Assembly (NCBI GenBank): GCA_964016885.1
Contig: OZ024743.1
Location: 267,840,001 to 267,904,000 of the forward strand
DNA length: 64,000 nucleotides
Source of the DNA: Eledone cirrhosa
Lineage: Eukaryota
Reading direction: 5' to 3'
Both the position numbers and the translations under genes were made by a program. Under the pieces are notes generated by a model that was given only the letters and a program-made list of their open reading frames with translations, was not told the DNA's origin and made no database searches. Shown one piece after another: positions 3,001 through 47,429 of this stretch (the stretch's first letter is position 1; each line of letters opens with the position of its first letter).

Positions 3001-6000
3001 TAGTGTCGTTCTCTTTGGTGGTGGTGGTGGTGTTGTTGTTGCTAATAGTGTCGTTCTCTTTGGTGGTGTTGTTGTTGTTGTTGCTAATAGTGTCGTTCTC
3101 TTTGGTGGTGGTGGTGGTGTTGTTGTTGTTGTTGTTGCTAATAGTGTCGTTCTCTTTGGTGTTGTTGTTGTTGTTGTTGTTGTTGCTAATAGTGTCGTTC
3201 TCTTTGGTGGTGGTGTTGTTGTTGTCGTTGTTGCTAATAGTGTCGTTCTCTTTGGTAGTGGTGTTGTTGTTGTTGTTGCTAATAGTGTCGTTCTCTTTGG
3301 TGGTGGTGTTGTTGTTGTTGTTGCTAATAGTGTCGTTCTCTTGGTGGTGGTGTTGTTGTTGTTGTTGTTGCTAATAGTGTCGTTCTCTTTGGTGGTGGTG
3401 GTGTTGTTGTTGTTGCTAATAGTGTCGTTCTCTTTGGTGGTGGTGTTGTTGTTGTTGTTGCTAATAGTGTCGTTCTCTTTGGTGGTGGTGTTGTTGTTGT
3501 TGTTGTTGCTAATAGTGTCGTTCTCTTTGGTGGTGTTGTTGTTGTTGCTAATAGTGTCGTTCTCTTTGGTGGTGGTGGTGGTGGTGTTGTTGTTGCTAAT
3601 AGTGTCGTTCTCTTTGGTGGTGGTGGTGGTGTTGTTGTTGCTAATAGCGTCGTTCTCTTTGGTGGTGTTGTTGTTGTTGTTGCTAATAGTGTCGTTCTCT
3701 TTGGTGGTGGTGTTGTTGTTGTTGTTGTTGCTAATAGTGTCGTTCTCTTTGGTGGTGGTGTTGTTGTTGTTGTTGCTAATAGTGTCGTTCTCTTTGGTGG
3801 TGGTGGTGTTGTTGTTGTTGCTAATAGTGTCGTTCTCTTTGGTGGTGGTGTTGTTGTTGTTGTTGTTGCTAATAGTGTCGTTCTCTTTGGTGGTGGTGTT
3901 GTTGTTGTTGCTAATAGTGTCGTTCTCTTTGGTGGTGGTGGTGGTGTTGTTGTTGCTAATAGTGTCGTTCTCTTTGGTGGTGGTGTTGTTGTTGCTAATA
4001 GTGTCGTTCTCTTTGGTGGTGGTGTTGTTGTTGCTAATAGTGTCGTTCTCTTTGGTGGTGGTGTTGTTGTTGTTGTTGTTGCTAATAGTGTCGTTCTCTT
4101 TGGTGGTGTTGTTGTTGTTGCTAATAGTGTCGTTCTCTTTGGTGGTGGTGGTGGTGGTGTTGTTGTTGCTAATAGTGTCGTTCTCTTTGGTGGTGGTGGT
4201 GGTGTTGTTGTTGCTAATAGCGTCGTTCTCTTTGGTGTTGTTGTTGTTGTTGCTAATAGTGTCGTTCTCTTTGGTGGTGGTGTTGTTGTTGTTGTTGTTG
4301 CTAATAGTGTCGTTCTCTTTGGTGGTGGTGTTGTTGTTGTTGTTGCTAATAGTGTCGTTCTCTTTGGTGGTGGTGGTGTTGTTGTTGTTGCTAATAGTGT
4401 CGTTCTCTTTGGTGGTGGTGTTGTTGTTGTTGTTGTTGCTAATAGTGTCGTTCTCTTTGGTGGTGGTGTTGTTGTTGTTGTTGCTAATAGTGTCGTTCTC
4501 TTTGGTGGTGGTGTTGTTGTTGTTGTTGCTAATAGTGTCGTTCTCTTTGGTGGTGTTGTTGTTGTTGTTGCTAATAGTGTCGTTCTCTTTGGTGGTGGTG
4601 GTGTTGTTGTTGCTAATAGTGTCGTTCTCTTTGCTGTTGGTGGTGTTGTTGTTGTTGCTAATAGTGTCGTTCTCTTTGGTGGTGGTGTTGGTGGTGTTGT
4701 TGTTGCTAATAGTGTCGTTCTCTTTGGTGGTGGTGGTGTTGTTGTTGCTAATAGTGTCGTTCTCTTTGGTGGTGGTGGTGGTGTTGTTGTTGCTAATAGT
4801 GTCGTTCTCTTTGGTGGTGGTGTTGTTGTTGTTGTTGTTGTTGTTGTTGCTAATAGTGGCGTTCTCTTTGCTGGTGGTGTTGTTGTTGTTGCTAATAGTG
4901 TCGTTCTCTTTGGTGGTGGTGGTGTTGTTGCTAATAGTGTCGTTCTCTTTGGTGGTGGTGGTGTTGTTGTTGCTAATAGTGTCGTTCTCTTTGGTGGTGG
5001 TGGTGTTGTTGTTGCTAATAGTGTCGTTCTCTTTGGTGGTGGTGGTGTTGTTGTTGCTAATAGTGTCGTTCTCTTTGCTGTTGGTGGTGTTGTTGTTGTT
5101 GCTAATAGTGTCGTTCTCTTTGGTGGTGGTGTTGGTGTTGTTGTTGTTGCTAATAGTGTCGTTCTCTTTGGTGGTGGTGTTGTTGTTGTTGTTGCTAATA
5201 GTGTCGTTCTCTTTGGTGGTGGTGGTGTTGTTGTTGCTAATAGTGTCGTTCTCTTTGCTGTTGGTGGTGTTGTTGTTGTTGCTAATAGTGTCGTTCTCTT
5301 TGGTGGTGGTGTTGGTGTTGTTGTTGTTGCTAATATTGTCGTTCTCTTTGGTGGTGGTGGTGGTGTTGTTGTTGCTAATAGTGTCGTTCTCTTTGGTGGT
5401 GGTGTTGCTGTTGTTGTTGCCAATAGTGTCGTTCTCGTTGCTGGTGGTGTTGTTGTTGTTGTTGCTAATAGTGTCGTTCTCTTTGGTGGTGGTGTTGTTG
5501 TTGTTGTTGCCAATAGTGTCGTTCTCTTTGGTGGTGGTGTTGTTGTTGTTGCTAATAGTGTCGTTCTCTTTGGTGGTGGTGTTGTTGTTGTTGTTGCTAA
5601 TAGTGTCGTTCTCTTTGGTGGTGGTGTTGTTGTTGTTGCTAATAGTGTCGTTCTCTTTGGTGGTGGTGCTGTTGTTGTTGCTAATAGTGTCGTTCTCTTT
5701 GGTGGTGGTGGTGGTGTTGTTGTTGCTAATAGTGTCGTTCTCTTTGTTAGTGGTGTTGTTGTTGTTGTTGCTAATAGTGTCGTTCTCTTTGGTGGTGGTG
5801 TTGTTGTTGTTGTTGCCAATAGTGTCGTTCTCTTTGGTGGTGGTGTTGTTGTTGTTGTTGTTGCTAATAGTGTCGTTCTCTTTGGTGGCGGTGTTGTTGT
5901 TGTTGTTGTTGCTAATAGTGTCGTTGTCTTTGGTGGCGGTGTTGTTGTTGTTGCTAATAGTGTCGTTCTCTTTGGTGGCGGTGGTGTTGTTGTTGTTGCT

Positions 6001-9000
6001 ATTAGTGTCGTTCTCTTTGGTGGCGGTGTTGTTGTTGTTGCTAATAGTGTCGTTCTCTTTGGTGGCGGTGGTGTTGTTGTTGTTGCTAATAGTGTCGTTC
6101 TCTTTGGTGGTGGTGTTGGTGTTGTTGTTGTTGCTAATAGTGTCGTTCTCTTTGGTGGCGGTGGTGTTGTTGTTGTTGCTAATAGTGTCGTTCTCTTTGG
6201 TGGTGGTGTTGTTGTTGTTGTTGTTGCTAATAGTGTCGTTCTCTTTGGTGGCGGTGTTGTTGTTGTTGTTGTTGCTAATAGTGTCGTTCTCTTTGGTGGC
6301 GGTGTTGTTGTTGTTGTTGCTAATAGTGTCGTTCTCTTTGGTGGCGGTGTTGTTGTTGCTAATAGTGTCGTTCTCTTTGGTGGTGGTGTTGTTGTTGTTG
6401 TTGCTAATAGTGTCGTTCTCTTTGGTGGTGGTGGTGTTGTTGTTGTTGCTAATAGTGTCGTTCTCTTTGGTGGTGGTGTTGTTGTTGTTGTTGCTAATAG
6501 TGTCGTACTCTTTGGTGGTGGTGTTGTTGTTGTTGTTGCTAATAGTGTCGTTCTCTTTGGTGGTGGTGTTGTTGTTGTTGTTGCTAATAGTGTCGTTCTC
6601 TTTGGTGGTGGTGTTGGTGATGTTGTTGCTAATAGTGTCGTTCTCTTTGGTGGCGGTGTTGTTGTTGTTGCTAATAGTGTCGTTCTCTTTGGTGGTGGTG
6701 TTGTTGTTGTTGTTGCTAATAGTGTCGTTCTCTTTGCTGGTGGTGGTGTTGTTGTTGCTAATAGTGTCGTTCTCTTTGGCGGTGGTGTTGGTGTTGTTGT
6801 TGCTAATAGTGTCGTTCTCTTTGGTGGTGGCGGTGTTGTTGTTGCTAATAGTGTCGTTCTCTTTGGTGGTGGTGTTGTTGTTGTTGTTGTTGCTAATAGT
6901 GTCGTTCTCTTTGGTGGCGGTGTTGTTGTTGTTGCTAATAGTGTCGTTCTCTTTGGTGGTGTTGTTGTTGTTGTTGTTGCTAATAGTGTCGTTCTCTTTG
7001 CTGGTGGTGGTGTTGTTGTTGCTAATAGTGTCGTTCTCTTTGGCGGTGGTGTTGGTGTTGTTGTTGCTAATAGTGTCGTTCTCTTTGGTGGTGGTGGTGT
7101 TGTTGTTGTTGCTAATAGTGTCGTTCTCTTTGGTGGTGGTGTTGTTGTTGTTGTTGCTAATAGTGTCGTTCTCTTTGGTGGTGGTGTTGTTGTTGTTGTT
7201 GCTAATAGTGTCGTTCTCTTTGGTGGTGTTGTTATTGTTGTTGTTGCTAATAGTGTCGTTCTCTTTGGTGGTGGTGTTGTTGTTGTTGCTAATAGTGTCG
7301 TTCTCTTTGGTGGTGGTGGTGTTGTTGTTGTTGCTAATAGTGTCGTTCTCTTTGGTGGTGGTGGTGTTGTTGTTCTTGCTAATAGTGTCGTTCTCTTTGG
7401 TGGTGGTGTTGTTGTTGTTGTTGCTAATAGTGTCGTTCTCTTTGGTGGTGGTGGTGTTGTTGTTGTTGCTAATAGTGTCGTTCTCTTTGGTGGTGGTGTT
7501 GTTGTTGTTGTTGCTAATAGTGTCGTTCTCTTTGGTGGTGTTGTTGTTGTTGTTGTTGCTAATAGTGTCGTTCTCTTTGGTGGTGTTGTTGTTGTTGTTG
7601 TTGCTAATAGTGTCGTTCTCTTTGGTGGTGGTGTTGTTGTTGTTGTTGTTGCTAATAGTGTCGTTCTCTTTGGTGGTGGTGGTGGTGTTGTTGTTGCTAA
7701 TAGTGTCGTTTTCTTTGGTGGTGGTGTTGTTGTTGTTGTTGCTAATAGTGTCGTTCTCTTTGGTGGTGGTGTTGTTGTTGTTGTTGCTAATAGTGTCGTT
7801 CTCTTTGGTGGTGGTGGTGTTGTTGTTGCTAATAGTGTCGTTCTCTTTGGTGGTGGTGGTGGTGTTGTTGTTGTTGTTGCTAATAGTGTCGTTCTCTTTG
7901 GTGGTGGTGTTGTTGTTGTTGTTGCTAATAGTGTCGTTCACTTTGGTGGTGGTGGTGTTGTTGTTGTTGCTAATAGTGTCGTTCTCTTTGGTGGTGGTGG
8001 TGTTGTTGTTGCTAATATTGTCGTTCTCTTTGCTGGTGGTGTTGTTGTTGTTGTTGCTAATAGTGTCGTTCTCTTTGCTGGTGGTGGTGGTGGTGTTGTT
8101 GTTGCTAATAGTGTCGTTCTCTTTGGTGGTGGTGTTGTTGTTGTTGCTAATAGTGTCGTTCTCTTTGGTGGTGGTGGTGTTGTTGTTGTTGCTAATAGTG
8201 TCGTTCTCTTTGGTGGTGGTGGTGTTGTTGTTGTTGTTGCTAATAGTGTCGTTCTCTTTGGTGGTGGTGTTGTTGGTGTTGTTGCTAATAGTGTCGTTCT
8301 CTTTGGTGGTGGTGTTGTTGTTGTTGCTAATAGTGTCGTTCTCTTTGGTGGTGGTGGTGTTGTTGTTGCTAATAGTGTCGTTCTCTTTGGTGGTGGTGGT
8401 GGTGGTGTTGTTGCTAATAGTGTCGTTCTCTTTGGTGGTGGTGTTGTTGTTGTTGTTGCTAATAGTGTCGTTCTCTTTGGTGGTGGTGGTGTTTTTGTTG
8501 TTGCTAATAGTGTCGTTCTCTTTGGTGGTGGTGGTGTTGTTGTTGCTAATAGTGTCGTTCTCTTTGGTGGTGGTGGTGTTGGTGTTGTTGTTGTTGCTAA
8601 TAGTGTCGTTCTCTTTGGTGGTGGTGGTGTTGGTGTTGTTGTTGTTGCTAATAGTGTCGTTCTCTTTGGTGGTGGTGGTGGTGTTGTTGTTGTTGCTAAT
8701 AGTGTCGTTCTCTTTGGTGGTGGTGGTGTTGTTGTTGCTAATAGTGTCGTTCTCTTTGGTGGTGGTGTTGTTGTTGTTGTTGCTAATAGTGTCGTTCTCT
8801 CTGGTGGTGGTGGTGTTGTTGTTGTTGCTAATAGTGTCGTTCTCTTTGCTGGTGGTGGTGTTGTTGTTGCTAATAGTGTCGTTCTCTTTGGTGGTGGTGT
8901 TGTTGTTGTTGTTGCTAATAGTGTCGTTCTCTTTGGTGGTGTTGTTGTTGTTGTTGCTAATAGTGTCGTTCTCTTTGGTGGTGGTGGTGTTGTTGTTGCT

Positions 9001-12000
9001 AATAGTGTCGTTCTCTTTGGTGGTGGTGGTGGTGGTGGTGTTGTTGCTAATAGTGTCGTTCTCTTTGGTGGTGGTGTTGTTGTTGTTGCTAATAGTGTCG
9101 TTCTCTTTGGTGGTGGTGGTGTTGTTGTTGTTGCTAATAGTGTCGTTCTCTTTGGTGGTGGTGGTGTTGTTGTTGTTGTTGCTAATAGGTTCGTTCTCTT
9201 TGGTGGTGGTGGTGGTGTTGTTGTTGTTGCTAATAGTGTCGTTCTCTTTGGTGGTGGTGGTGTTGTTGTTGCTAATAGTGTCGTTCTCTTTGGTGGTGGT
9301 GGTGGTGGTGTTGTTGCTAATAGTGTCGTTCTCTTTGGTGGTGGTGTTGTTGTTGTTGTTGCTAATAGTGTCGTTCTCTTTGGTGGTGGTGGTGGTGTTG
9401 TTGTTGCTAATAGTGTCGTTCTCTTTGGTGGTGGTGTTGTTGTTGTTGTTGCTAATAGTGTCGTTCTCTTTGGTGGTGGTGGTGGTGTTTTTGTTGTTGC
9501 TAATAGTGTCGTTCTCTTTGGTGGTGGTGGTGTTGTTGTTGCTAATAGTGTCGTTCTCTTTGGTGGTGGTGGTGTTGGTGTTGTTGTTGTTGCTAATAGT
9601 GTCGTTCTCTTTGGTGGTGGTGGTGGTGTTGTTGTTGCTAATAGTGTCGTTGTCTTTGGTGGTGGTGTTGTTGTTGTTGTTGCTAATAGTGTCGTTCTCT
9701 TTGGTGGTGGTGGTGTTGTTGTTGTTGCTAATAGTGTCGTTCTCTTTGGTGGTGGTGGTGTTGGTGTTGTTGTTGTTGCTAATAGTGTCGTTCTCTTTGG
9801 TGGTGGTGGTGGTGTTGTTGTTGTTGCTAATAGTGTCGTTCTCTTTGGTGGTGGTGGTGTTTTTGTTGTTGCTAATAGTGTCGTTCTCTTTGGTGGTGGT
9901 GGTGTTGGTGTTGTTGCTAATAGTGTCGTTCTCTTTGGTGGTGGTGTTGTCGTTGTTGTTGCTAATAGTGTCGTTCTCTTTGGTGGTGGTGGTGGTGTTG
10001 TTGTTGTTGCTAATAGTGTCGTTCTCTTTGGTGGTGGTGGTGTTGTTGTTGTTGCTAATAGTGTCGTTCTCTTTGGTGGTGGTGGTGTTGGTGTTGTTGT
10101 TGTTGCTAATAGTGTCGTTCTCTTTGGTGGTGGTGGTGGTGGTGTTGTTGCTAATAGTGTCGTTCTCTTTGGTGGTGGTGGTGTTGTTGTTGCTAATAGT
10201 GTCGTTCTCTTTGGTGGTGGTGGTGTTAGTGTTGTTGTTGTTGCTAATAGTGTCGTTCTCTTTGGTGGTGGTGGTGGTGGTGTTGTTGCTAATAGTGTCG
10301 TTCTCTTTGGTGGTGGTGGTGTTGTTGTTGTTGCTAATAGTGTCGTTGTCTTTGGTGGTGGTGTTGTTGTTGTTGTTGCTAATAGTGTCGTTGTCTTTGG
10401 TGGTGGTGGTGTTGTTGTTGTTGTTGCTAATAGTGTCGTTGTCTTTGGTGGTGGTGTTGTTGTTGTTGTTGCTAATAGTGTCGTTCTCTTTGGTGGTGGT
10501 GGTGTTGTTGTTGTTGCTAATAGTGTCGTTCTCTTTGGTGGTGTTGTTGTTGTTGTTGTTGCTAATAGTGTCGTTCTCTTTGGTGGTGGTGTTGGTGTTG
10601 TTGTTGTTGCTAATAGTGTCGTTCTCTTTGGTGGTGGTGGTGGTGGTGTTGTTGCTAATAGTGTCGTTCTCTTTGGTGGTGGTGGTGTTGGTGTTGTTGT
10701 TGTTGCTAATAGTGTCGTTCTCTTTGGTGGTGGTGGTGGTGGTGTTGTTGCTAATAGTGTCGTTCTCGTTGGTGGTGGTGGTGGTGGTGTTGTTGTTGTT
10801 GCTAATAGTGTCGTTGTCTTTGGTGGTGGTGTTGTTGTTGTTGTTGCTAATAGTGTCGTTGTCTTTGGTGGTGGTGTTGTTGTTGTTGTTGCTAATAGTG
10901 TCGTTGTCTTTGGTGGTGGTGTTGTTGTTGTTGTTGCTAATAGTGTCGTTCTCTTTGGTGGTGGTGTTGTTGTTGTTGCTAATAGTGTCGTTCTCTTTGG
11001 TGGTGGTGGTGGTGGTGTTGTTGCTAATAGTGTCGTTCTCTTTGGTGGTGGTGGTGTTGGTGTTGTTGTTGTTGCTAATAGTGTCGTTCTCTTTGGTGGT
11101 GGTGGTGGTGGTGGTGTTGTTGCTAATAGTGTCGTTCTCTTTGGTGGTGGTGGTGTTGGTGTTGTTGTTGTTGCTAATAGTGTCGTTCTCTTTGGTGGTG
11201 GTGGTGGTGGTGTTGTTGCTAATATTGTCGTTCTCTTTGGTGGTGGTGTTGTTGTTGTTGCTAATAGTGTCGTTCTCTTTGGTGGTGGTGGTGGTGGTGT
11301 TGTTGCTAATAGTGTCGTTCTCTTTGGTGGTGGTGTTGTTGTTGTTGCTAATAGTGTCGTTCTCTTTGGTGGTGGTGGTGGTGTTGTTGCTAATAGTGTT
11401 GTTCTCTTTGGTGGTGGTGGTGGTGTTTTTGTTGCTAATAGTGTCGTTCTCTTTGGTGGTGGTGGTGTTGTTGTTGTTGCTAATAGTGTCGTTCTCTTTG
11501 GTGGTGGTGGTGGTGGTGTTGTTGCTAATAGTGTTGTTCTCTTTGGTGGTGTTGGTGTTGTTGTTGCTAATAGTGTCGTTCTCTTTGGTGGTGGTGGTGT
11601 TGTTGTTGTTGCTAATAGTGTCGTTCTCTTTGGTGGTGGTGGTGGTGTTGTTGCTAATAGTGTTGTTCTCTTTGGTGGTGGTGTTTTTGTTGTTGCTAAT
11701 AGTGTCGTTCTCTTTGGTGGTGGTGGTGTTGTTGTTGTTGCTAATAGTGTCGTTCTCTTTGGTGGTGGTGGTGTTGTTGTTGTTGTTGCTAATAGTGTCG
11801 TTCTCTTTGGTGGTGGTAGTGGTGTTGTTGTTGTTGCTAATAGTGTCGTTCTCTTTGGTGGTGGTGATGGTGTTGTTGTTGCTAATAGTGTCGTTCTCTT
11901 TGGTGGTGGTGTTGTTGTTGTTGTTGTTGCTAATAGTGTCGTTCTCTTTGGTGGTGGTGTTGGTGTTGTTGTTGCTAATAGTGTCGTTCTCTTTGGTGGT

Positions 12001-12580
12001 GGTGTTGTTGTTGTTGTTGCTAATAGTGTCGTTCTCTTTGGTGGTGGTGGTGGTGTTGTTGCTAATAGTGTTGTTCTCTTTGGTGGTGTTGGTGTTGTTG
12101 TTGCTAATAGTGTCGTTCTCTTTGGTGGTGGTGGTGTTGTTGTTGTTGCTAATAGTGTCGTTCTCTTTGGTGGTGGTGGTGGTGTTGTTGCTAATAGTGT
12201 TGTTCTCTTTGGTGGTGTTGGTGTTGTTGTTGCTAATAGTGTCGTTCTCTTTGGTGGTGGTGGTGTTGTTGTTGTTGCTAATAGTGTCGTTCTCTTTGGT
12301 GGTGGTGGTGTTGTTGTTGCTAATAGTGTCGTTCTCTTTGGTGGTGTTGTTGTTGTTGTTGTTGCTAATAGTGTCGTTCTCTTTGGTGGTGGTGGTGTTG
12401 TTGTTGTTGCTAATAGTGTCGTTCTCTTTGGTGGTGGTGGTGTTGTTGTTGCTAATAGTGTTGTTCTCTTTGGTGGTGGTGTTGTTGTTGTTGTTGCTAA
12501 TAGTGTCGTTCTCTTTGGTGGTGGTGTTGTTGTTGTTGTTGCTAATAGTGTCGTTCTCTTTGGTGGTGGTGTTGTTGCTG
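1..12580. repeat. Minisatellite array, ~36-51 bp units: constant 21-bp core GCTAATAGTGTCGTTCTCTTT + variable (GGT)n(GTT)n; roughly 300 units, runs off the window start
   Basis: Seen directly. The very long ORFs (IVSFSLVVVLLL / KENDTISNNNTTT / KRTTLLATTTPPP) are translations of this repeat. Confidence 0.98.
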
Positions 12581-15374: not shown

Positions 15375-15870
15375 GACACCTGGAATATAGCTTAAGACAA
15401 ATTTGAAGATAATGATATGATAGGCACCCATATTTTGAATTGGTCTATAGAATTCTTTTGGCCTTTGTCACTCTAAGTAGAACTTTAAAGAATTAGCTTT
15501 TAAAGAATTTCTCTTTACTTTAAATCCTTCAACCATGACCGACCCCCAACGATCTTATAGACACCTGAAATATAGGCATTGTTAGCTTAAGAGAAACTTA
15601 AAAATAAGGAGTGGCACCCCATTCTGAACTTGTTTATAGAATTCTTTCTGCCTTTGTCACTCTAAATATAAATTATAGCTTTAAGGAATTAGCTTTTAAT
15701 GAATTTTCTTTTCTATCAACCAATGACCTCTACCCATCCCACTCCCCACCCTCTCCTACCACCTGAAAAGATCTATATATATCACTTTTATATTTGGATA
15801 CCCAGATTCCTGATGATTTCTAAATAATGAAACAGTTCTAGTCCTGTAGGATCTCATCTATATTAAAACT
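15375..15870 (+). mobile_element. Penelope-like 3' end relic: two diverged ~185-bp direct copies followed by a hammerhead-bearing pLTR
   Basis: GACACCTG...GCCTTTGTCACTCTAA...GAATTAGCTTTTAA...ATGACC occurs at ~15375 and ~15560. It translates to KELAFKEFLFTLN, resembling a GIY-YIG C-terminus (inference). Confidence 0.5.
15804..15854 (+). ncRNA. Type I hammerhead ribozyme
   Basis: Stem I AGAUUC/GGAUCU, core CUGAUGA, stem-loop II UUUCUAAAUAAU (weak), GAAA, stem III ACAG/CUGU, GUA cleavage triplet. Confidence 0.75.
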
Positions 15871-18719: not shown

Positions 18720-19402
18720 TGTCAGAATGTGTTCCTTGATACTCAGAACCTTCCAGTCGAGAGATTCCCACACCATTATCCTTCTCTTCTCCACTTTTGC
18801 CCGACCACACCTTGAATACTGTTGTCCACTGTGGTCTCCCCACACGAAACAAAGTATCATGAAACTTGAAGCTCCCCAAAGGGCAATCACGAAAAAGATA
18901 GATGGCATGTCAGACCTTGACTACTGGGGTCGACTAGAAAAGCTGAAACTTTACTCACTCCAACGTCGCCGTGAGCGTTATATTATCTGCATGATGTGGA
19001 AAATGTTTCATCAGCACTGCTCAAGTGATGTTGGCACCACCTTCAAAATACACCCAAGGCTTGGGCCCTGTGCTATCCGTCCCAAACAAAAATCTAAATC
19101 GCAACTAATAACAACAATACGGCACAATTATTTCACCTCAATTGGCCGCTCTCTTCAACATCACACCAGGACACGTGAAAACTGAAACTAACCACACAAA
19201 ATTCACAAAGTCTTTGGACAAATTCCTCCAAGTAATCCCGGACAAACCACCCACACCCGGATATGTCTCCGCAAACAGTAATTCTCTTCTCGAATGGGCC
19301 ATGTTGCCCAAATCCTGAATTGAAAGACTTCGCCAGGTGGTGCTATTAAGTTAGACATTGCCTGGGCCAATACTGGCCAAAACATTTCAAAGTTATTCAA
19401 AG

Positions 19403-19403
<1 letters not shown>
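18720..19403 (+). mobile_element. 5'-truncated CR1/L2-group LINE (RT C-terminus + 3' UTR)
   Basis: ORF 18727-19185: LILRTF..LFSTFARPHLEYCCPLWSP..KLEAPQRAITK..RLEKLKLYSLQRRRERY. Has a 3' hairpin and a short repeated tail (TTCAAAGT) ending in (TA)n. Confidence 0.88.
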
Positions 19404-19447
<44 letters not shown>

Positions 19448-19565
19448 TATAGACATAGAATATTCGAAAATATTCTGTATGTTTATAATAAACATTTTGA
19501 AGACCTAATCGCTATAGAATAATACGTCACGTATTACAATTAGATTCTCGATAAAAGCAAGGGAA

Positions 19566-21148
19566 GTAATCTACGCGTTTCATTCTTGTTAGAAATCATC
19601 AGGACTACATATCCAGTGCTTTTATCGAGAATGACACAGCTAGAGACTTATAGAATACTTAGCTGTGTACAGGAACTGGTTAGAAAGAGCGGTTGCCGGT
19701 CCGGCAGAAATTAGAAATTGGAATAAATGCTCTGAAATAGCGATATATATGTGAATATAGACATTGAATATTCGAAAATATTCTGTATGTTTATAATAAA
19801 CATTTTGAAGACCTAATCGCTATAGAATAATACGTCACGTATTACAATTAGATTCTCGATAAAAGCAAGGGAAGTAATCTACGCGTTTCATTCTTGTTAG
19901 AAATCATCAGGACTACATATCCAGTGCTTTTATCGAGAATGACACAGCTAGAGACTTATAGAATACTTAGCTGTGTACAGGAACTGGTTTGAAAGAGCGG
20001 TTGCCGGTCCGGCAGAAATTAGAAATTGGAATAAATGCTCTGAAATAGCGATATATATGTGAATATAGACATAGAATATTCGAAAATATTCTGTATGTTT
20101 ATAATAAACATTTTGAAGACCTAATCGCTATAGAATAATACGTCACGTATTACAATTAGATTCTCGATAAAAGCAAGGGAAGTAATCTACGCGTTTCATT
20201 CTTGTTAGAAATCATCAGGACTACATATCCAGTGCTTTTATCGAGAATGACACAGCTAGAGACTTATAGAATACTTAGCTGTGTACAGGAACTGGTTAGA
20301 AAGAGCGGTTGCCGGTCCGGCAGAAATTAGAAATTGGAATAAATGCTCTGAAATAGCGATATATATGTGAATATAGACATAGAATATTCGAAAATATTCT
20401 GTATGTTTATAATAAACATTTTGAAGACCTAATCGCTATAGAATAATACGTCACGTATTACAATTAGATTCTCGATAAAAGCAAGGGAAGTAATCTACGC
20501 GTTTCATTCTTGTTAGAAATCATCAGGACTACATATCCAGTGCTTTTATCGAGAATGACACAGCTAGAGACTTATAGAATACTTAGCTGTGTACAGGAAC
20601 TGGTTTGAAAGAGCGGTTGCCGGTCCGGCAGAAATTAGAAATTGGAATAAATGCTCTGAAATAGCGATATATATGTGAATATAGACATAGAATATTCGAA
20701 AATATTCTGTATGTTTATAATAAACATTTTGAAGACCTAATCGCTATAGAATAATACGTCACGTATTACAATTAGATTCTCGATAAAAGCAAGGGAAGTA
20801 ATCTACGCGTTTCATTCTTGTTAGAAATCATCAGGACTACATATCCAGTGCTTTTATCGAGAATGACACAGCTAGAGACTTATAGAATACTTAGCTGTGT
20901 ACAGGAACTGGTTTGAAAGAGCGGTTGCCGGTCCGGCAGAAATTAGAAATTGGAATAAATGCTCTGAAATAGCGATATATATGTGAATATAGACATAGAA
21001 TATTCGAAAATATTCTGTATGTTTATAATAAACATTTTGAAGACCTAATCGCTATAGAATAATACGTCACGTATTACAATTAGATTCTCGATAAAAGCAA
21101 GGGAAGTAATCTACGCGTTTCATTCTTGTTAGAAATCATCAGGACTAC
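19566..21148 (-). ncRNA. Six type I hammerhead ribozymes (19566-19608, 19874-19916, 20182-20224, 20490-20532, 20798-20840, 21106-21148)
   Basis: Reverse complement of GUAGUC-CUGAUGA-UUUCUAACAAGAAU-GAAA-CGC-GUA-GAUUAC in every unit. Confidence 0.85.
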
Positions 21149-21268
21149 ATATCCAGTGCTTTTATCGAGAATGACACAGCTAGAGACTTATAGAATACTT
21201 AGCTGTGTACACAGCTAAGTATTCTATAAGTCTCTAGCTGTGTCATTCTCGATAAAAGCACTGGATAT

Positions 21269-22543
21269 GTAGTCCTGATGATTTCTAACAAGAATGAAAC
21301 GCGTAGATTACTTCCCTTGCTTTTATCGAGAATCTAATTGTAATACGTGACGTATTATTCTATAGCGATTAGGTCTTCAAAATGTTTATTATAAACATAC
21401 AGAATATTTTCGAATATTCTATGTCTATATTCACATATATATCGCTATTTCAGAGCATTTATTCCAATTTCTAATTTCTGCCGGACCGGCAACCGCTCTT
21501 TCTAACCAGTTCCTGTACACAGCTAAGTATTCTATAAGTCTCTAGCTGTGTCATTCTCGATAAAAGCACTGGATATGTAGTCCTGATGATTTCTAACAAG
21601 AATGAAACGCGTAGATTACTTCCCTTGCTTTTATCGAGAATCTAATTGTAATACGTGACGTATTATTCTATAGCGATTAGGTCTTCAAAATGTTTATTAT
21701 AAACATACAGAATATTTTCGAATATTCTATATCTATATTCACATATATATCGCTATTTCAGAGCATTTATTCCAATTTCTAATTTCTGCCGGACCGGCAA
21801 CCGCTCTTTCAAACCAGTTCCTGTACACAGCTAAGTATTCTATAAGTCTCTAGCTGTGTCATTCTCGATAAAAGCACTGGATATGTAGTCCTGATGATTT
21901 CTAACAAGAATGAAACGCGTAGATTACTTCCCTTGCTTTTATCGAGAATCTAATTGTAATACGTGACGTATTATTCTATAGCGATTAGGTCTTCAAAATG
22001 TTTATTATAAACATACAGAATATTTTCGAATATTCTATGTCTATATTCACATATATATCGCTATTTCAGAGCATTTATTCCAATTTCTAATTTCTGCCGG
22101 ACCGGCAACCGCTCTTTCTAACCAGTTCCTGTACACAGCTAAGTATTCTATAAGTCTCTAGCTGTGTCATTCTCGATAAAAGCACTGGATATGTAGTCCT
22201 GATGATTTCTAACAAGAATGAAACGCGTAGATTACTTCCCTTGCTTTTATCGAGAATCTAATTGTAATACGTGACGTATTATTCTATAGCGATTAGGTCT
22301 TCAAAATGTTTATTATAAACATACAGAATATTTTCGAATATTCTATGTCTATATTCACATATATATCGCTATTTCAGAGCATTTATTCCAATTTCTAATT
22401 TCTGCCGGACCGGCAACCGCTCTTTCAAACCAGTTCCTGTACACAGCTAAGTATTCTATAAGTCTCTAGCTGTGTCATTCTCGATAAAAGCACTGGATAT
22501 GTAGTCCTGATGATTTCTAACAAGAATGAAACGCGTAGATTAC
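21269..22543 (+). ncRNA. Five type I hammerhead ribozymes (21269-21311, 21577-21619, 21885-21927, 22193-22235, 22501-22543)
   Basis: Stem I GUAGUC/GAUUAC, extended by the 16-bp helix AUUCUCGAUAAAAGCA/UGCUUUUAUCGAGAAU. Core CUGAUGA, stem II UUCU/AGAA, GAAA, palindromic stem III ACGCGU, GUA cleavage site. Confidence 0.85.
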
Positions 22544-23300
22544 TTCCCTTGCTTTTATCGAGAATCTAATTGTAATACGTGACGTATTATTCTATAGCGA
22601 TTAGGTCTTCAAAATGTTTATTATAAACATACAGAATATTTTCGAATATTCTATGTCTATATTCACATATATATCGCTATTTCAGAGCATTTATTCCAAT
22701 ATATATATATATATATATATACTATACATATATACATATATATATATAAGTAAGTATGTTTTGAAAGAGTGAGCGAGTTTGAAATTAGAAATATAAGCTT
22801 TCACCGTATTTTTGACTAAAGAAATGGAAAAAGATAAGTATTGATGTATTGATTAGTATTGATTAGTATTGATCCACTAATATTATAATTATATATATAT
22901 ATACACGGGAGCATATCAACCAATTAATGGAATACAAGGCAACTGTTGTGCAGCTATGTGGATGTATGGGTTGATAGAAGTAGCAGACAATTCTTCCTAC
23001 AACTTTTAAAAGAGGGACACATCGCATAGTGTAGAACAAGGTAGCCGAAAATACAAGATGATTGAGACTGTTAGTTATGTTCGATCAGAGATGGACTGAC
23101 ACTAATCATCAACAACGGTAGAAACGACGGTAACAATAAAAGCTTAAATATATACATATACCTACCTACTCACACACCCGCATGCACGCAGATATTCAAT
23201 CCCTAAAGCCAAGTTTATGCCGCTTTGTATAGTTTTGTTCTTTCATTCTCATTCTCCCTCTATTTGTTATTCTTCTTCTGCTCCACTCTTTTCCACACGC

Positions 23301-33309: not shown

Positions 33310-33340
<31 letters not shown>

Positions 33341-33578
33341 GATTTGAATGGATACAGTTTAGTTGAAAGGAATTTATTGACACGTGTTTCTATAACAGTT
33401 ACATAACCTAAAACAGCTGCTATCTACAAACTTTTAGTTATGCAGACATTCAATATTTCAATGTTATTATTTACTGTCATTTCATCAGAATAATATTACT
33501 GAGGACCTATTTTCAATGTTATTATTTACTGTCATTTCATCAGAATAATATTACTGAGGACTCAATTTAAACTCTGGT

Positions 33579-34679
33579 TTGATTAAACCGTTTCATAAAT
33601 TGAATGAAAATCTCAAATACGTAAATGTTGGGTCTAACCACCCCATCTCTATAATTAAATCTATCCCTAAAAATATTTCCCTTAGAATCTCGGCTCTATC
33701 TTCTAACATACAAGTATTTAAGGAACACGCCGAGTACTACGATAACGCCCTTAGTAAAGCAGGCTACCTCAACAAAATAGAGTACATAGATGGGAACAAT
33801 CAAAACACCCAAAATAAATCCCACATAGGTAGATATAATAACACAACACCAAACCACACTTACTACCATAGTATGCACACCAGTAAACCAACAAACAAAA
33901 CTAATAGAAAGCGATGCAAAGAGTACTTATGGTATAACCCCGAATACAATAGTTCCATTAGTACAAATTTACCAGTACTCTTCTTTAAAATAATTAAAAG
34001 ACATTTTCCCACATCACACAAATACCACAAAATCCTAAACCCTACCACTATAAGACTGTCATACTCTACAGCGTTAAACCTTGAACAACACATAAAAAAG
34101 ATCAATACTAGAAGGTTAAACGAAAACACTAAGAACTTAAGTACAAAGAACACAAAAAAAACAGTAGACAATACACTACAGAACATAAATAAACCACACC
34201 TAAGTTCGTCCGCAATACTACTCCAGAGAAAACCCAACGTACACAACTGTAACTGCACCTATCCTGACAACTGCCCCCTCGGCAATAACTGCCTGGAAAA
34301 AAATATTATTTATAAGTGTACCATTAAATCCGGAGGCAACGAGTGGTATTACGTGGGATCAACGGCAACATCGTTTAAATCTCGATTGTATAGGCATTCT
34401 TACTCAATAAAACACCAGAGCCAAAGAAATGTAACAACTTTAGCAGAAAAAGCTTGGACGCTCAGGGATAGCGATCAAAAGTTTACCCTAAAATGGGAAA
34501 AATTAGCTAAAACCCAAAGCTTTTCCAGGAGCCAAAATTTCTGCAAATTGTGTAATCTTGAGATTTATTACATAATCACACACAAGAAGAAACTGCTGAA
34601 TAACAGAATTGAACGAACATTATTCTGCCGTCACAGAACTAAAACCCTTTTTTCCCACAACATGCCGAATATTACATAA
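33579..34679 (+). CDS. Penelope-like RT thumb/linker + GIY-YIG endonuclease (5'-truncated, uninterrupted 366 aa)
   Basis: YVNVGSNHP, WYNPEYN, CNCTYPDNCPLGNNC, NIIYKC..YYVGST..FKSRLYRH, FCKLCNLEIYYI, CRHR. Confidence 0.9.
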   Translation: MIKPFHKLNENLKYVNVGSNHPISIIKSIPKNISLRISALSSNIQVFKEHAEYYDNALSKAGYLNKIEYIDGNNQNTQNKSHIGRYNNTTPNHTYYHSMHTSKPTNKTNRKRCKEYLWYNPEYNSSISTNLPVLFFKIIKRHFPTSHKYHKILNPTTIRLSYSTALNLEQHIKKINTRRLNENTKNLSTKNTKKTVDNTLQNINKPHLSSSAILLQRKPNVHNCNCTYPDNCPLGNNCLEKNIIYKCTIKSGGNEWYYVGSTATSFKSRLYRHSYSIKHQSQRNVTTLAEKAWTLRDSDQKFTLKWEKLAKTQSFSRSQNFCKLCNLEIYYIITHKKKLLNNRIERTLFCRHRTKTLFSHNMPNIT

Positions 34680-34946
34680 AAGAGGGACATCCCCCAACTA
34701 TATAAACCTTAATCTAGTTAGAAAAATATAAAAACAATCTCTTCTCAACATATATTAATAACCTTAAATTACCACACTAATAATGGAAAGATATGCTGAT
34801 GAGAATAGGTACAAATATGCGATAATGAATGTGTCAAAAAACGTCCATAAGTATGTATATATATGTGAAAATGTATATAAATAAGTAAATATATATATAT
34901 GTTTGATGTGTATAGTTAGATGTAAGTGTATTCATGTATTAAAGTG

Positions 34947-34985
<39 letters not shown>

Positions 34986-34993
<8 letters not shown>

Positions 34994-35340
34994 ATAAATG
35001 GAAAACTATATTTATAAAACCATATCTATTTCATTATATATATTTCGGGGATATCATATTAACAATATGCTATGCCTTCATCAGACAAAATACAATATAA
35101 ACAGTTTTATAGATAAATATATTCGACATACCGTAATAAACATCAACTTCATTTGAAGAGGTTTACTCTTCAAATGAAGTTGATGTTTATTACGGTATGT
35201 CGAATATATTTATCTATAAAACTGTTTATATTGTATTTTGTCTGATGAAGGCATAGCATATTGTTAATATGATATCCCCGAAATATATATAATGAAATAG
35301 ATATGGTTTTATAAATATAGTTTTCCATTTATTTAATATT
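34986..35340. repeat. Perfect 175-bp-arm palindrome (5-nt loop GTTTA, 35161-35165) of a hammerhead-containing pLTR
   Basis: The arms are exact reverse complements as read. Confidence 0.95.
35234..35299 (+). ncRNA. Type I hammerhead with long stem II (mirror copy on - strand at 35027-35092)
   Basis: Stem I UAUUUUGU/AUGAAAUA, CUGAUGA, 14-bp stem II with 3 mismatches, GAAA, palindromic AUAUAUAU stem III, AUA cleavage site. Confidence 0.7.
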
Positions 35341-35427
35341 GTAAATATACTCCAAATATTTGTCGAGTGCTTTTATATCAGTTATAAATATTTACTAGTT
35401 GTAACCCAACAATTTTAAATATAACCT

Positions 35428-35429
<2 letters not shown>

Positions 35430-35504
<75 letters not shown>

Positions 35505-35780
35505 ATATATATATGTATGTATATATGTGTATATGGATGTGTATGTATGTGTATGTGTGTACACATGGACTAGAGTATGTATGTATATATGTGTGTGTCT
35601 ATACGTGTGTATATAAAGATAAGTTGAGTATGAAAATGTATACACATGAGCGCGTATGTATGTACATGAATACATGTGTGTATATATATGTGTATGCATG
35701 TGTATATATATGTAAGTATGAATATGTGAATTGTGAGTATATGTATTTTGTAGAGGTGTGCAAATATATTTGTGTGTGAA
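35430..35780. repeat. (TA)n / degenerate (TG/TA)n microsatellite
   Basis: Seen directly. Confidence 0.9.
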
Positions 35781-36077
35781 TGCGTGGGTGAAAGGATACG
35801 TACACTTGAAGGAAAATTTTAAGTCTGAATGTTAATTAAGTGCAAACACAAAACCAACCACGCATATCTTTACTATCTCTAATCCTTCTATAGATTTAGA
35901 AAAATAACCAATAATATATTCTATAAAAAATGTCAAAACAACAGATGGGAATCTAATTACTCACTGCCACCAAGAATTTTCACTGCTATCGAAAAACCAC
36001 TCCTTCAACTATTCTTCTAACAACTTCAGCCCTCCCTCCTAATATTCTCTATAAAAACTAAATAGGTCCTCAGTAAT

Positions 36078-36127
36078 ATTATTCTGATGAAATGACAGTA
36101 AATAATAACATTGAAATATTGAATGTC
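36078..36127 (+). ncRNA. Degenerate hammerhead-like motif in the PLE pLTR (inverted copies near 33445-33550)
   Basis: CUGAUGA-AAUG..CAUU-GAAA-UAUU; stem I pairing and cleavage triplet are ambiguous. Confidence 0.45.
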
Positions 36128-36345
36128 TGCATAACTAAAAGTTTGTAGATAGCAGCTGTTTTAGGTTATGTAACTGTTATAGAAACACGTGTCAATAAAT
36201 TCCTTTCAACTAAACTGTATCCATTCAAATCTTTCTATTTTTCTCCGGATTACTTTTGGAACTACAACTGGAACCGTCGAGCAAACTCTACGTGAGCTGA
36301 TAATCTACTGTGTGTAATATTTATATTACAACACAACGGAAAATA

Positions 36346-39012: not shown

Positions 39013-39264
39013 ACATTTGCATTTATCTTGCTTTATGTTCATACGAGTTATCACCAAGTCACAACCAGTGACCTCAAGAGACAACAAGGTCCGCCATGTT
39101 CAAGAAAGAACATACATATTCACACATGCATCTTTAGTGTTTAGACTTGTGATGTACTTATATTGACAGAATCTTCCTTAGTATTTGGGTAGTTCCCATT
39201 AGTACTATCTTTTGTATTTCTCCTATACGCGGGTTTCCTGGGATTTGCGATAAGTAATCATTAG
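39013..39264 (-). mobile_element. 5'-truncated Dong/R4-type family B 3' end
   Basis: Second copy of the same 3' end between (TTA)n tracts. Confidence 0.88.
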
Positions 39265-39499
39265 TATTATTATTATTATTATTATTATTAGGCGACCTAC
39301 GTAGTAAATCGTATCATCGTGAGCTCCGCAAAGGTTTGTTATTTCCGTTTGTTAAAAATTGCCATTTATAGAAATTTTTTATTGTTAACCATATATAACG
39401 CACATACATTGTTTTCCGAAAAGGACACCCAAAAAGATTGGGGCCTTGTGCCCAAAATTTAAACTTTTATTATTATCAAAAAATTTCTTTGAAAAAAAA

Positions 39500-41461
39500 A
39501 TGGCTAATTCACCTCTGCACCAAGCAGCTGAAAGCCTTCCTCACAAATTAACACCTCACACCGACACCACCATTGTAAATGTTACTACGTTTGCCAACAC
39601 TACAAAACAATATAAGCAGTAGCAATATTTTAAATTTGTCTCAGGCAGACATTCATTTCCCGCCATTACCAATGACTGCAGGTGTTAAAGCCTCCACCAC
39701 CACCACCATCACCGCGACAACAGAAACAAAAGAAGAAAAAAATAAATTAACTCGTGATGTCGAAATGAAATCAAGCAAAATGGACTCTTCCCCACCAAAG
39801 ACGACTGACGTCACCACCACCACAACTGAAACTAAAATTAATATTAACACAAATAACGATAGCAATAACAACAACAATGACATTATAAAAACCTCCCTCA
39901 GTTTCGCCAGAGTAGCAAAACAGTTCGAAGCATTTACGGTAACTCAGGAAGATGTAGAAAATGCCAAACAAATGGTAAAGAAAGATGGGTACAGGGTCAG
40001 CCTCACCCCCACCTAATAAAATGGAGCATCGGCGCCTATGCACCGTGTCGTATCGAACAATAAATGTAAAATCGCGCCGAGTGGAACGGGCATCCGAGTC
40101 CCAAATCCAAAAAGCTTTGGGACATGTGTGGGGAAGAAAAACCCACATCAGACGTGGGCAAAAGTATGGGACTGTGGACGTGTTCTTTGAAACACCAGAG
40201 GAGGCTAGAGAACACTCCATTAAGAAGTGACGACTTCACACTCGTCCCAAGCTATTGTGGCCAGAGACTCGTAAAGATCAGGATGACCCACGGTCCACCG
40301 GCCATCGAAATTCCCTGGCTAATAGCGGCCGTCCTCGCCGGCATCGAAGCCAACACAAACATAATAGCAATAGGAAAAGAAAAGCAGGAGAACTGGTCCG
40401 GATCTGGGATGGAGCTCCTGATCCAAGCGGACCAAAAAAGCATTGAGGAGATCCCAGAGGTAATAGACCTCACTGACGGCAGCCACCTCACGGTAATTGT
40501 CGAGGGCAGAAGACCTAGGTGTGTCGTTTGTGGTGAAGGAACCCACCTAAGGGCTTTCTGCCCTCAGGCTAAAAGGTTGAGGCCACCTCTCCTACCCACC
40601 CCAGTGACACAACCATCAACACCACCAGTAGTAGAGATGGCAGCAACAACTGTAGCAGCAACAACAGAAGCAACTATAACAGCAACAACCCCAGCAACAG
40701 TAGCAAAACCAACACCACCACCACCACAAGCAGCAAAACCAACACCACCACCCCCCAACGCTTCAGAACTAGCACCAGCGCCTACACCATCCACCACGCC
40801 ACAACTAAATCTAACGCCTGTGGAGGATTTTCCACTCCCCGGCCTATCACAACTGGAGACAGATTGTGACGACGAGGAGTGGGAAACGATATCCGGAAAA
40901 AAAAAGAAACCTAAAAGAAAAACTTCTCTTCCTTCCCCCTCCAAAAACAAAATACAGAGGGAAACAAATAAACTAAGAAACAAAAAAGTTAGGACAGATA
41001 TGCCACCATCCACACCAGCATCACCAACCCCATCAACCCAAACACCAACACCATCACCATCATTAACCCCAACACCACCATCACCTACACCACAAAAGCC
41101 ACCAAAATGCGAAACAGAAACAAACCCACAACAAACGCAAACAAAACAAAACAACCAAAACGATACACACTACACAGCATTAAATTTTAACAACAAGCAA
41201 TTATTACACTACATCCAACACAACACCAGCATCACAGAAAAAGACTACACAACAACCCCAAAATTCACACCACCTCCACACATACAAATCACTCGCATCA
41301 CACAGAAAACGTACATGACACTAAAAAAAAAATTCCCCAAAGACATCGGAGACTTCCGACAAGCTCTCTCCAGGAGGATTTATAAGGACATCCTTCCTGA
41401 GGAGGCCACAAGCAGTGAAAAGGATGGAAAAACCGTCCTTCCCCTACGAGAAGTAAGGTAA
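39500..41461 (+). pseudogene. Tx1 copy A ORF1 (RRM-like + CCHC knuckle + Pro/Thr-rich tail), frameshifted
   Basis: YGTVDVFFETPEEA; CVVCGEGTHLRAFC (Cx2Cx4Hx4C). Confidence 0.85.
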
Positions 41462-41495
41462 GTGGTCTTTCCCATCTTTTCCACTCCTTTTCAAC

Positions 41496-44400
41496 ATGAC
41501 CTCACTCAGAATAGGCAGCATAAATGCGCGTGGCTTGGGGTCGTCATGGAAGCAGGGTCACCTGCTCAACGACCTCAGGTCACTAAACATAGATGTAGTG
41601 GCCATCAGCGAGACCTGAATCTCCGAAGCAAAGGCTTTCACACCGATCTTCGTCGGCTACGATGTGTACGCATCTCCCAGCCGTCCGGGATCGGGGGAGG
41701 AGTTGCTGTGCTATTTCGGAGAGGTTTGGAACTTGCCATACGGGCCATCTTCCTGGACCCAGAAGGTAAGTTGGTGGTGCTGGACGTAACCAGCGGAGAC
41801 GGGAAAGCTTTCAGGTTAGTGGCCGTCTATGCCCCGACAGGAGCAAGGCGGCCTGATTTCTTCCGGCGTCTGGAGACCTTTCTTGGAACGTCCCGCTCTT
41901 TAGTGTTAGTGGGCGACTGGAACGGGATCTTAGATACACGCTGGGATTGTGTGGGATTAGTGGATAGGGAAGGAGGGTGCAAGAGTCTCACCAACATGCT
42001 CAGACGTTTTGAACTGTCTGACAGGTACCGAATGGATTTCCCGAATGTACCAATGTGGACTTGGACAAATCGCATAGGGTCATCCAGATCATATCTAGAT
42101 AGAGTATTTTGTAGGGAAATAGATAGGTCTAGCATAGGTTGTCCACAATTCAAGATAGTCAGCTACACGGACCACAAATTCGTGATCTGTGTGCTTGACT
42201 TAGATAGGCTTCATAGACGAGGACCCGGCTACTGGAAGCTAAACGCGTCCTTACCAGCGCGCAAGGCCTACAGAGACCGGATTAGCGAACTAGTTAAGCG
42301 GGCGTTGACGGGGGCCATCGTCAACAACAAGTGGTGGTTTGCTCTGAAAAGAGCAATTAGAATAGAGTCCATTAGGTTTAGTAAGACTTTAGCAATAGAG
42401 AAAAATAGAGCAGAGGGAGAATTAGTTAGAAAATTAGATGAGGCGCTTAGCAAAGGCATCGCGACCGACATGCTTGCGGCGAAATTGGCCCTTGACCAAT
42501 TCTTCAATGCAAAGCACGAAGGCTGCGTTGTCAGAGCTAGGGTGCGTGCTCTCAGACACGAGGGGACGAAAGCCGTTCAATGGGCCCAAGTGGCGGAGGC
42601 GCGTCGTGGCAACAAATCCACGATCCGGTCTTTGGTGGACCACGACGGGCGCATGCTACTCGATCCCGGGCAAATGTGTGAAGCTTTTCAGCGACACTTC
42701 GCTCAACTGTTCGGGGGCAGTGGCGGGCCGGATCGAGGGATGGACTTTAGTGTCTTCCTCGAAGGAATGCCGCGGCTTTCGGCCACTGAGGCGGAGTGTT
42801 GCGAAAAGCCGATAACAACCGCTGAAGTACGGGATGCAATGACTAGTTGCACAAGGGGTAAATCGCCTGGTTTTGATGGTCTGCCCTATGAACTTTACGT
42901 ACAAATGCCAGACTTGTTCGGAGGCCTCTTGGCGGATGTCTACTGCAACTGGCAACAGAACGGGAGAATTCCCAGCTCTGTGAGCTGAGGAGCCGTGGCG
43001 CTGCTGAGAAAGGATCCGAACAAGGGGGATAACATAGATCATTTTAGGCCCATAACTCTGCTAAACACAGAGTTCAAGATTTTGGCCAAGGTGCTAGCAA
43101 AGAGGTTGGCGCTTGTCGTTGGTGGTCTGGTGGGAGAGGCACAGACATGCGCCATTCCCGACAGATCCATCCACGACAACCTCCACCTCATGCGATACAT
43201 CGTAGAGAGGGTAGCTAGGGAACCTGGCACGGGTGGGTCTTTGATCAATTTAGATCAGTCGAAAGCCTTCGATAGGTTCGACCATCGTTACCTAGCGGCA
43301 GTCCTGAGGGCGGCTGGATTTGGGCCCGTCTTCAGAGGCTGGATCGCTGCCATGCACAGCGACATCTGCTCTGTAGTGAGAGTGAACGGTCACCTTTCGG
43401 AACCGTTCAACATCATGCGCTCGGTCCGCCAAGGATGTCCCCTCTCGTCCATATTGTACGTATTGACTCTCGAGCCATTACTGCACAAACTGGAGACGTT
43501 GAGGGGGGGTCCCACGCGAACTAGGATGCGGAAGATCCGTGTCAGCATATGCCAACGATGTCACCGTAGTGGTGTCGAACGCCAAACACGTCGACGCGAT
43601 CGGCACTACACTAAGAGAATACGAAGCGGTGACAGGAGCAATGATCAACCAGGAAAAGTCAGTGGGCCTGCAGCTCGGCACCTGGAGAGGCAGATCCATG
43701 CCGTCCAACAGCGTCGTCGGATGCTGGACGGACGGACCGGTTAAATTGCTAGGGGTCAGGTTCGGTCCAGACCTCCAGACGGACAAAAACTGGGACGAGG
43801 TGACGAGCAGGGTGGCTTCTCTCACCCAGAAATGGGCCGAGAGGAAGCTATCCCTGAAAGGTCGAGCGGAGGTGGCTAACGCGTACATCGCGTCCGTCAT
43901 CTACTACCGCCTGACCGTCGTACCTTGTCCTAAGCCCCGCCTGACTGCGCTGGATTGTTTGCTCTTTCGTTTCTTGTGGAAGGAACGCGCTCCGATGGTC
44001 AGGCGGTCCATCTGCTGCCAACCCCCGCTACGTGGAGGGCTGGGCATGCCGTGGCTGATGATGCGCAGACACGCGCTCAGGCTACGACATCTCCACCTCT
44101 TCCTCGACGGTGATTAGGTGTGGTCGCCGTTTGCTAGACACGTTTTTCCCCAGCTCGTCTCCTTGACGGAGCTGCAGTCCTGGGTCAAGCGTAGACCGAG
44201 AGGGAGCGCTTGGAGACTGGAATGTCTTCAGGCGCTCACAGCCCTCGACCAATCGGGCAATGTGATCGGTGGAAACTCCACCTTGGCGTTCTATAGGGGA
44301 TTAGTGGAGGGGTAGAGCGACGACGTACTTGGAGAACTCTAGGCGTCGACAAAAATCAACTAGCCAATCTCTTCGGAAGGACTTTCGGGCCGGGGCCTAT

Positions 44401-45156: not shown

Positions 45157-45196
<40 letters not shown>

Positions 45197-47395: not shown

Positions 47396-47429
47396 GTGGT
47401 CTTTCCCATCTTTTCCACTCCTTTTCAAC

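Follow-up and report, generated by a model that had tools for sequence, protein, structure and literature searches.

We examined a 64,000-nucleotide stretch of the Eledone cirrhosa genome (contig OZ024743.1, positions 267,840,001 to 267,904,000; hereafter the window), in which two tandem arrays of a short repeat with a hammerhead ribozyme motif lie head-to-head at 19445–21208 and 21209–22700, with (TA)n at both outer ends. The sequence is mirrored about 21208/21209 for 1,492 bp per side (19717–22700) with three mismatches (20914/21503, 20686/21731 and 19765/22652), and the left arm extends past the mirror to ~19445. The initial annotation of this DNA had described a ~3-kb palindrome that flips at this step, a diagnostic A/T site and private variants at ~19765 and ~21731, all of which we recover. 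The repeat unit, whose positions we number from 21206, has a period of 308 bp and is present in about 5.7–5.8 copies in the left arm and about 4.85–4.9 in the right. It is non-coding, has a GC content of ~34% and falls within the 150–450-bp length range of retrozymes. No low-bias open frame of at least 170 amino acids is listed at the locus, and the reverse transcriptase (RT) plus GIY-YIG frame of an autonomous Penelope-like element (PLE) is absent from the insertion. Read from the center outward, the A/T site is A,A,T,A,T in the left arm and T,A,T,A in the right. We found no empty-site haplotig, the right flank being single-copy beyond its first 82 bases, and a target-site duplication is not scorable within (TA)n. 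The right flank starts with the end of another repeat family (22745–22826), which occurs as opposed pairs at many loci, and nested insertions accumulate in (TA)n runs. The left flank (18800–19404) resembles by eye the 3′ end of a long interspersed nuclear element (LINE).

The ribozyme sense points outward in both arms. All 11 CTGATGA...GAAACGCGTA motifs in the window are intact, with five on the plus strand (21275, 21583, 21891, 22199 and 22507) and six on the minus strand (21142, 20834, 20526, 20218, 19910 and 19602), matching the earlier count. The hammerhead assignment is based on motif and pairing: stem I is GUAGUC/GAUUAC, followed by the CUGAUGA core, a stem II of UUCU/AGAA over a U–U base, GAAA and a palindromic stem III, ACGCGU, with cleavage predicted after GUA at 21305. 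An Rfam scan gave nothing at the gathering score, the sole sub-threshold match being Hammerhead_HH9 at 19.2 bits (E 0.051, cut-off 52). The unit is strongly self-paired (z −4.78, 0/100 shuffles), and the two stem III halves are able to pair with an energy of −9.5 kcal/mol. Such pairing resembles that of amphibian motifs that cleave as dimers (PMC7229834), and self-cleavage is reported for only 1 of 9 predicted Xenopus elements (bioRxiv 10.64898/2026.07.22.740005). Elsewhere in the window, a lone hammerhead-like motif (CTGATGA...GAAACAGTT) at 15790–15870 adjoins a (TA)n run and probably belongs to another small family.

Table 1. Features of the head-to-head insertion, in window coordinates
Feature	Position	Strand	Remarks
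(TA)n run, target microsatellite	19405..19444		left end
Left arm, ~5.7 units	19445..21211	-	includes shared TGTACA; ribozyme sense minus strand, outward
Left outer end (family short end)			unit position 228-237, ...GTCTATATTCA into TA
TGTACA overlap	21206..21211		6-nt, self-complementary, common to both arms
Right arm, ~4.85 units	21206..22700	+	includes shared TGTACA; ribozyme sense plus strand
Type I hammerhead motif, first right-arm unit	21269..21311	+	recurs every 308 bp
A/T site	21503	+	unit position 298
One-sided tail, 26 nt	22675..22700	+	unit 238-263; right end only, missing at left end
Right outer end (family long end)			unit position 263, ...TTATTCCAAT into TA
(TA)n-rich run	22701..22748		right end

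A genome search returned 135 matches from 31 scored candidates, after which 28 other loci were examined. The copies are dispersed over many contigs and both strands, and their arms nearly always stop at unit position 237 or 263, straight into (TA)n, a target also of the Hydra and Naiad clades of PLEs. Exact end patterns running into TA number 1,186 for the short end and 1,041 for the long end genome-wide, with 0 for reversed controls, and the family is estimated at roughly 1,100–2,000 insertions. The short end is at 237 and the long end at 262–270 (263 being typical, 26 nt apart), giving a tail of 26–33 nt. In the first 222.5 Mb of contig C1, where we examined 100 short and 82 long listed ends and paired them within 20 kb, every head-to-head pair of listed ends joins a short to a long one (54/54, none alike). 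We then sampled 40 stretches around these pairs as well as the first 40 suitable unpaired ends, 29 of which proved to be head-to-head too, with a long end at 263–270 or a variant base, and 11 to be single arms. By a hand estimate, roughly 80–90% of the sampled insertions are head-to-head; this arrangement is the usual form of the family, and the locus is not special in having it. Across 109 stretches we located 93 head-to-head junctions and scored 92. Short and long ends are combined in 85, two long ends in one and two short ends in none; the remaining six have one end unreached, truncated or complex. These 85 comprise 40 from stretches picked as such pairs and 45 picked otherwise. One junction in L049 was unscorable, L044 was excluded (its arms lie 466 bases apart, with a gap), L092 was dropped for a gap at the junction, and the duplicated insertion in L048 was counted twice.

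Several observations touch on the wider family. In one head-to-head insertion (L095:491–610), the long arm is so short that just the last ~10 bases of the tail precede (TA)n. An older sister family with ~72–75% identity over part of the unit (L043:4040–4270 and L028:4686–4946) has its own hammerhead-like motif and head-to-head pieces, and 2,794 first-look candidates. A near-identical unit also occurs in 20 public runs coded as 17 organisms from 16 studies; X4, X7 and X13 each contain one closed 340-base contig, whereas 0 reads came from raw DNA sequencing of one of these organisms. This wide occurrence may reflect cross-contamination, related species or horizontal spread. None of the public runs that contain the unit is on record as RNA.

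The end counts bear on two explanations that place the inversion outside the act of insertion. In the first, a fold-back chimeric read has created it during assembly; a spacer-less palindrome is typical of such reads, and no sequence among the listed contigs of the public runs spans it. The two arms nevertheless meet different flanks through canonical short and long ends, differ from one another at three sites and share a variant that is found at one other place only. Moreover, the same structure with other junctions recurs at 92 further places in our sample. The structure is also found outside the assembly: contigs of the public runs X1 and X2, which derive from one sample and may be the assembly's own source, show at least seven other head-to-head joints, and position 237 recurs there as a loose end in (TA)n. 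We regard an artefact as very unlikely. The second explanation is that a direct array was later inverted or amplified at the DNA level, by unequal crossover or break repair. Satellite-type local amplification has been discussed for retrozyme arrays (bioRxiv 10.64898/2026.07.22.740005), variants repeat in a period-like manner at L023 and L058, and later duplication may add units. Such a route cannot yield two different outward fixed ends in 85/92 junctions at dispersed, near-identical loci, and is hard to credit as the origin of the paired arms.

The inner junctions, scored with mismatch tolerance, show no comparable fixed position. Break positions are uniform over the unit for both arm types (Kolmogorov–Smirnov p 0.09 and 0.90). 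Microhomology of at least 2 nt is present at 44 of the 71 blunt-or-overlap junctions versus 18.8% for random joins (p 1e-15), and inserts of 1–31 bases occur in 21/92 junctions. TGTACA had been proposed as the seed of the inversion, with the suggestion that other arrays be checked for inversion at the same site. With these uniform junctions and a TGTACA fold junction at a single locus genome-wide, the present one, against ~0.7 expected from microhomology joining (a hand estimate), we rejected it as a recurrent seed. Besides TGTACA, the unit contains further palindromes of 6–8 nt, namely ACGCGT, CTATAG, TTATAA, AATATT, TTCGAA, GAATATTC and ATATATAT. We read the TGTACA at this junction as junction microhomology, and the palindromic seed as chance.

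The same junctions speak to the fold-back self-priming put forward initially, in which one cDNA (complementary DNA), or an antisense template, would hairpin at a palindrome and copy itself. The junction at this locus is an exact palindrome, three of the four comparable A/T sites mirror one another, and the private T occurs in both arms; palindromes are also described at inverted PLE junctions, where self-priming has been suggested (PMC3846280). However, fold-back provides no second fixed outer end, and the end at 263 is used in 67/92 junctions and by single arms as well. Near-symmetric junctions (within 6 nt) are at chance level, with 4/85 versus 3.6 expected. At the locus itself neither the two singletons nor the innermost A/T site are mirrored. 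In these insertions either arm may be the longer one. Self-priming is thus an improbable source of these insertions; the alternative wording of the initial annotation, a switch of template, can stand if it is taken to mean joining to a second cDNA.

In L1 twin priming both target strands prime cDNA, which gives outward arms with microhomology at the inner junction. The retrozyme insertions differ in that the second primer site is fixed and not random, the same sequence is covered repeatedly by the arms and neither arm stops at the other's start. One arm ends at the start site of the other in 3 and 7 of 85 junctions against 5.8 expected, and we discarded classic twin priming on this chance-level result.

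The repeats within an insertion are alike. Of 76 insertions compared, 64 have identical column-wise letters in the two arms, whereas only 7.7% of the 6,729 pairs formed across loci do. The lengths of the arms correlate (rho 0.37, p 0.0005, n = 85). Minority letters occupy 0.1% of cells within a locus (a rate of 0.001), and 71 of the 79 insertions with at least five copies have no recurrent minority variant. At the same time, 61 loci hold 30 unit types, 21 of them seen once, and at many loci every copy, in one arm as in the other, carries the private variants of that locus. Homogeneous arrays, numerous unit types and privately fixed variants together imply a bottleneck of a single monomer, which is probably best met by a cleaved and ligated circular RNA. 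The initial proposal of rolling-circle cDNA holds in this sense, as a multimer copied from a probably circular template. We also considered L029 as a chimera of two templates, an ambiguous case in which the partner is itself an inverted element, and dropped it.

Of the insertions sampled, only the one in the window has a nearly 50:50 alternating variant. The T allele of its A/T site has five exact matches genome-wide, of which four are here, in both arms, and one is in L024. Neighboring copies differ at the site in 6 of 7 cases (p ~0.06 by hand calculation). A dimeric template, hinted at in the initial annotation, is a fair suggestion for this locus only; it is plausible as the simplest reading, with one copy left unexplained. 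Later gene conversion between the arms is a possible alternative source of the pattern.

Candidate helpers reside in the same genome. Two young PLE families, PLE-A adjacent to L035 and PLE-B at 33.3–36.3 kb of the window, each have 150/150 scored matches at 94–100% identity and contain open frames of 927 and 785 amino acids, respectively. By eye, both display RWK, DKT, CxCX5C, CxxC and CxH motifs and a C-terminal endonuclease. These five motifs mark the Hydra clade, in which almost every family targets (TA)n (PMC8557442), and by them PLE-A and PLE-B are probably of the Hydra type. Pfam and PDB sequence scans of the two frames gave no matches; homologues give weak RVT_1 and GIY-YIG matches below the cut-off, and HTH_animal, GIY-YIG and RVT_1 are found in Atlas neighbors. 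In PLE-A, an autonomous family, 161 nt separate two alternative 3′ ends, and among 30 loci the head-to-head pairs with both ends seen follow the same rule, being short plus long in 6/6. At L035, a retrozyme arm with its short end abuts a 5′-truncated PLE-A with its long end, head-to-head and with no TA between, and L041 has a similar joint with another PLE fragment. These two joints are suggestive only. As to PLE-B itself (window 33337–36300), it has an inverted arm with a 55-bp tandem of hammerhead-like motifs, and its left arm ends at (TA)n where the right arm continues. We had considered this region as a chimera of two families and instead find one PLE family with an inverted arm.

We interpret the locus as one young animal retrozyme insertion of the kind without long terminal repeats (non-LTR). 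A Penelope-like RT–endonuclease, probably of the Hydra clade, likely produced its two arrays in the act of insertion, priming cDNA from both cut (TA)n strands on one likely circular RNA; we put the probability of this reading at roughly 0.7. It builds on the outward arms, the two fixed ends paired one of each, the random microhomology joints, the unit type shared by both arms, the (TA)n targets and the young Hydra-type PLEs. A multimer transcript would self-cleave, and a monomer (here perhaps a dimer) would be ligated into a circle. A PLE protein, perhaps as a dimer, would bind the circle and nick both (TA)n strands, whereupon cDNA synthesis would begin from one 3′-OH at the short site and from the second 3′-OH at the long site, and would go round the circle several times from each. 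The 3′ ends of the cDNAs would stop at random, anneal through 0–6 nt or more of microhomology, here by way of TGTACA, which is self-complementary, and each would prime the second strand of the other. The stretch between the two RT start sites would then make up the tail. One purified PLE protein cuts and extends both strands, and its RT starts at two sites that define a tail (PMC11167929). The proposed coupling of short and long starts to the two strands goes beyond those in vitro data.

Several points weigh against this interpretation. In the same in vitro work, the start site showed no difference between strands and uncleaved RNA was the main template (PMC11167929). One insertion has two long ends (L031), the arms differ in 12/76 insertions, and at the locus itself the innermost A of the left arm breaks a strict dimer alternation. 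Among the listed contigs of the public runs, none crosses the locus junction or connects its two flanks. The monomer's fold of minimum energy is a different one from the hammerhead conformation, and among 105 loci the core reads CUGAAGA in 26 and CUGACGA in 2; this change is at the variable core position, the remaining core letters being nearly invariant in the sampled loci. With respect to the helper, the unit has no match to the 3′ ends of PLE-A or PLE-B, as compared over 60 loci of these two families, and PLE mobility has been argued to depend on family-specific pseudo-LTRs (pLTRs; PMC3846280). We rejected three short matches of 74–76% as a cognate pLTR in PLE-A or PLE-B, all of them lying outside the 3′ ends of the elements. 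The joints at L035 and L041 could also have arisen by later insertion at the border of a pre-existing PLE. Finally, position 101, where ligation is predicted, is no error hotspot: variants occur there in 5/826 copies, at two loci. Such a hotspot had first appeared in L023 and L034 and is unsupported over 93 loci and 978 copies.

Some of these points favor a scheme without a circle, in which both strands prime on a linear multimer RNA, or on two RNAs from one source array. It would agree with the preference for uncleaved RNA in vitro and with the missing ligation scar. Recurrent variants at a few loci (L023, L034, L058, L068, L105 and L119) count against a monomeric circle and are explicable by a linear multimer or by later duplication; in L119 and L068 the minority base is in the same phase in both arms. 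The scheme must still accommodate the many loci in which all copies of both arms share a new variant, a pattern that needs a monomer bottleneck. If a single linear RNA were twin-primed, moreover, an arm should stop at the other's start, which occurs at chance level. We consider a linear template unlikely, and retain priming from both strands on a likely circular RNA.

The arrangement also affects what the locus may express. The initial annotation foresaw both circular and double-stranded RNA from flank transcription, and of these it is the double-stranded product that would tend to be favored. A transcript entering from either flank would copy an antisense arm first, and the ribozyme arm would therefore tend to be captured in a ~1.5-kb hairpin, likely favoring double-stranded over circular RNA. 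Circles would more likely come from transcripts initiated inside one arm.

The family resembles the animal non-LTR retrozymes already described (PMC7229834; bioRxiv 10.64898/2026.07.22.740005), which are also non-coding tandem units of 150–450 bp with a GC content below 50%, strong self-pairing, a single type I hammerhead motif in each unit and PLEs in the same genome. It further shares a weak palindromic helix III and a U–U pair at the base of helix II with axolotl motifs that cleave as dimers (PMC7229834). It differs in that the accounts of those retrozymes describe direct tandem arrays, whereas here the arrays are mostly head-to-head with fixed short and long ends. Endonuclease-containing PLEs of the Hydra clade (PMC8557442; PMC3846280) form partial tandems, inverted 5′-truncated copies placed head-to-head and one-ended tails, and target (TA)n without clear target duplication; an inverted arm with a one-sided tail is thus already known for PLEs. 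The retrozyme, in contrast, has no open reading frame, both of its arms are multimers of whole units, and its tail measures 26–33 nt versus the 30–40 described. Its junctions are mostly non-palindromic, contrary to the self-priming reading of PMC3846280, which is a published guess for PLE inverted repeats; elsewhere the cause of tandem and inverted PLE insertions and of the tail is called undefined (PMC8557442). The Poseidon PAc protein in vitro (PMC11167929) likewise cuts and extends both strands of an AT-rich target and has two internal RT starts bounding a tail, with no strand difference between the sites, whereas a retrozyme insertion almost always pairs both sites. In the literature searched, which did not cover subscription papers and preprint supplements, we met neither head-to-head arrays of retrozymes nor a short–long pairing rule; inverted arrays may appear in the supplements to the retrozyme papers.

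Other repeats are present in the window. Positions 1–12577 consist of a 45-bp tandem repeat in 279 copies, in which both strands have stop-free frames of more than 3,000 codons and the minus-strand frame is Asn/Thr-rich; it may be a minisatellite or a mucin-like exon. A ~5.9-kb tandem duplication of a LINE with endonuclease and RT frames lies at 39257–51123, its copies 96% identical, and a further partial copy of the same LINE is found at 59.7–61.3 kb.

The locus is an ordinary member of a large, young retrozyme family, and the one case whose junction falls on a palindrome. The family bears on whether retrozyme arrays originate as rolling-circle cDNA or by later amplification, and on which enzyme mobilizes them. 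Intact open reading frames of candidate helpers are present in the same genome as this family, and with about a thousand young, near-identical events, models of insertion become separable by counting. We lean slightly toward a broader picture in which an asymmetric two-headed complex commits each cut strand to a different RT start on the same RNA. On a retrozyme circle both enzymes would roll together, so that satellites would be born as palindromic double arrays, leaving about a thousand kilobase-long loci able to form hairpins, of which the present one would record a dimeric circle. The value of the finding lies in the family and not in the locus, as a countable test of PLE insertion and of the birth of retrozyme arrays.

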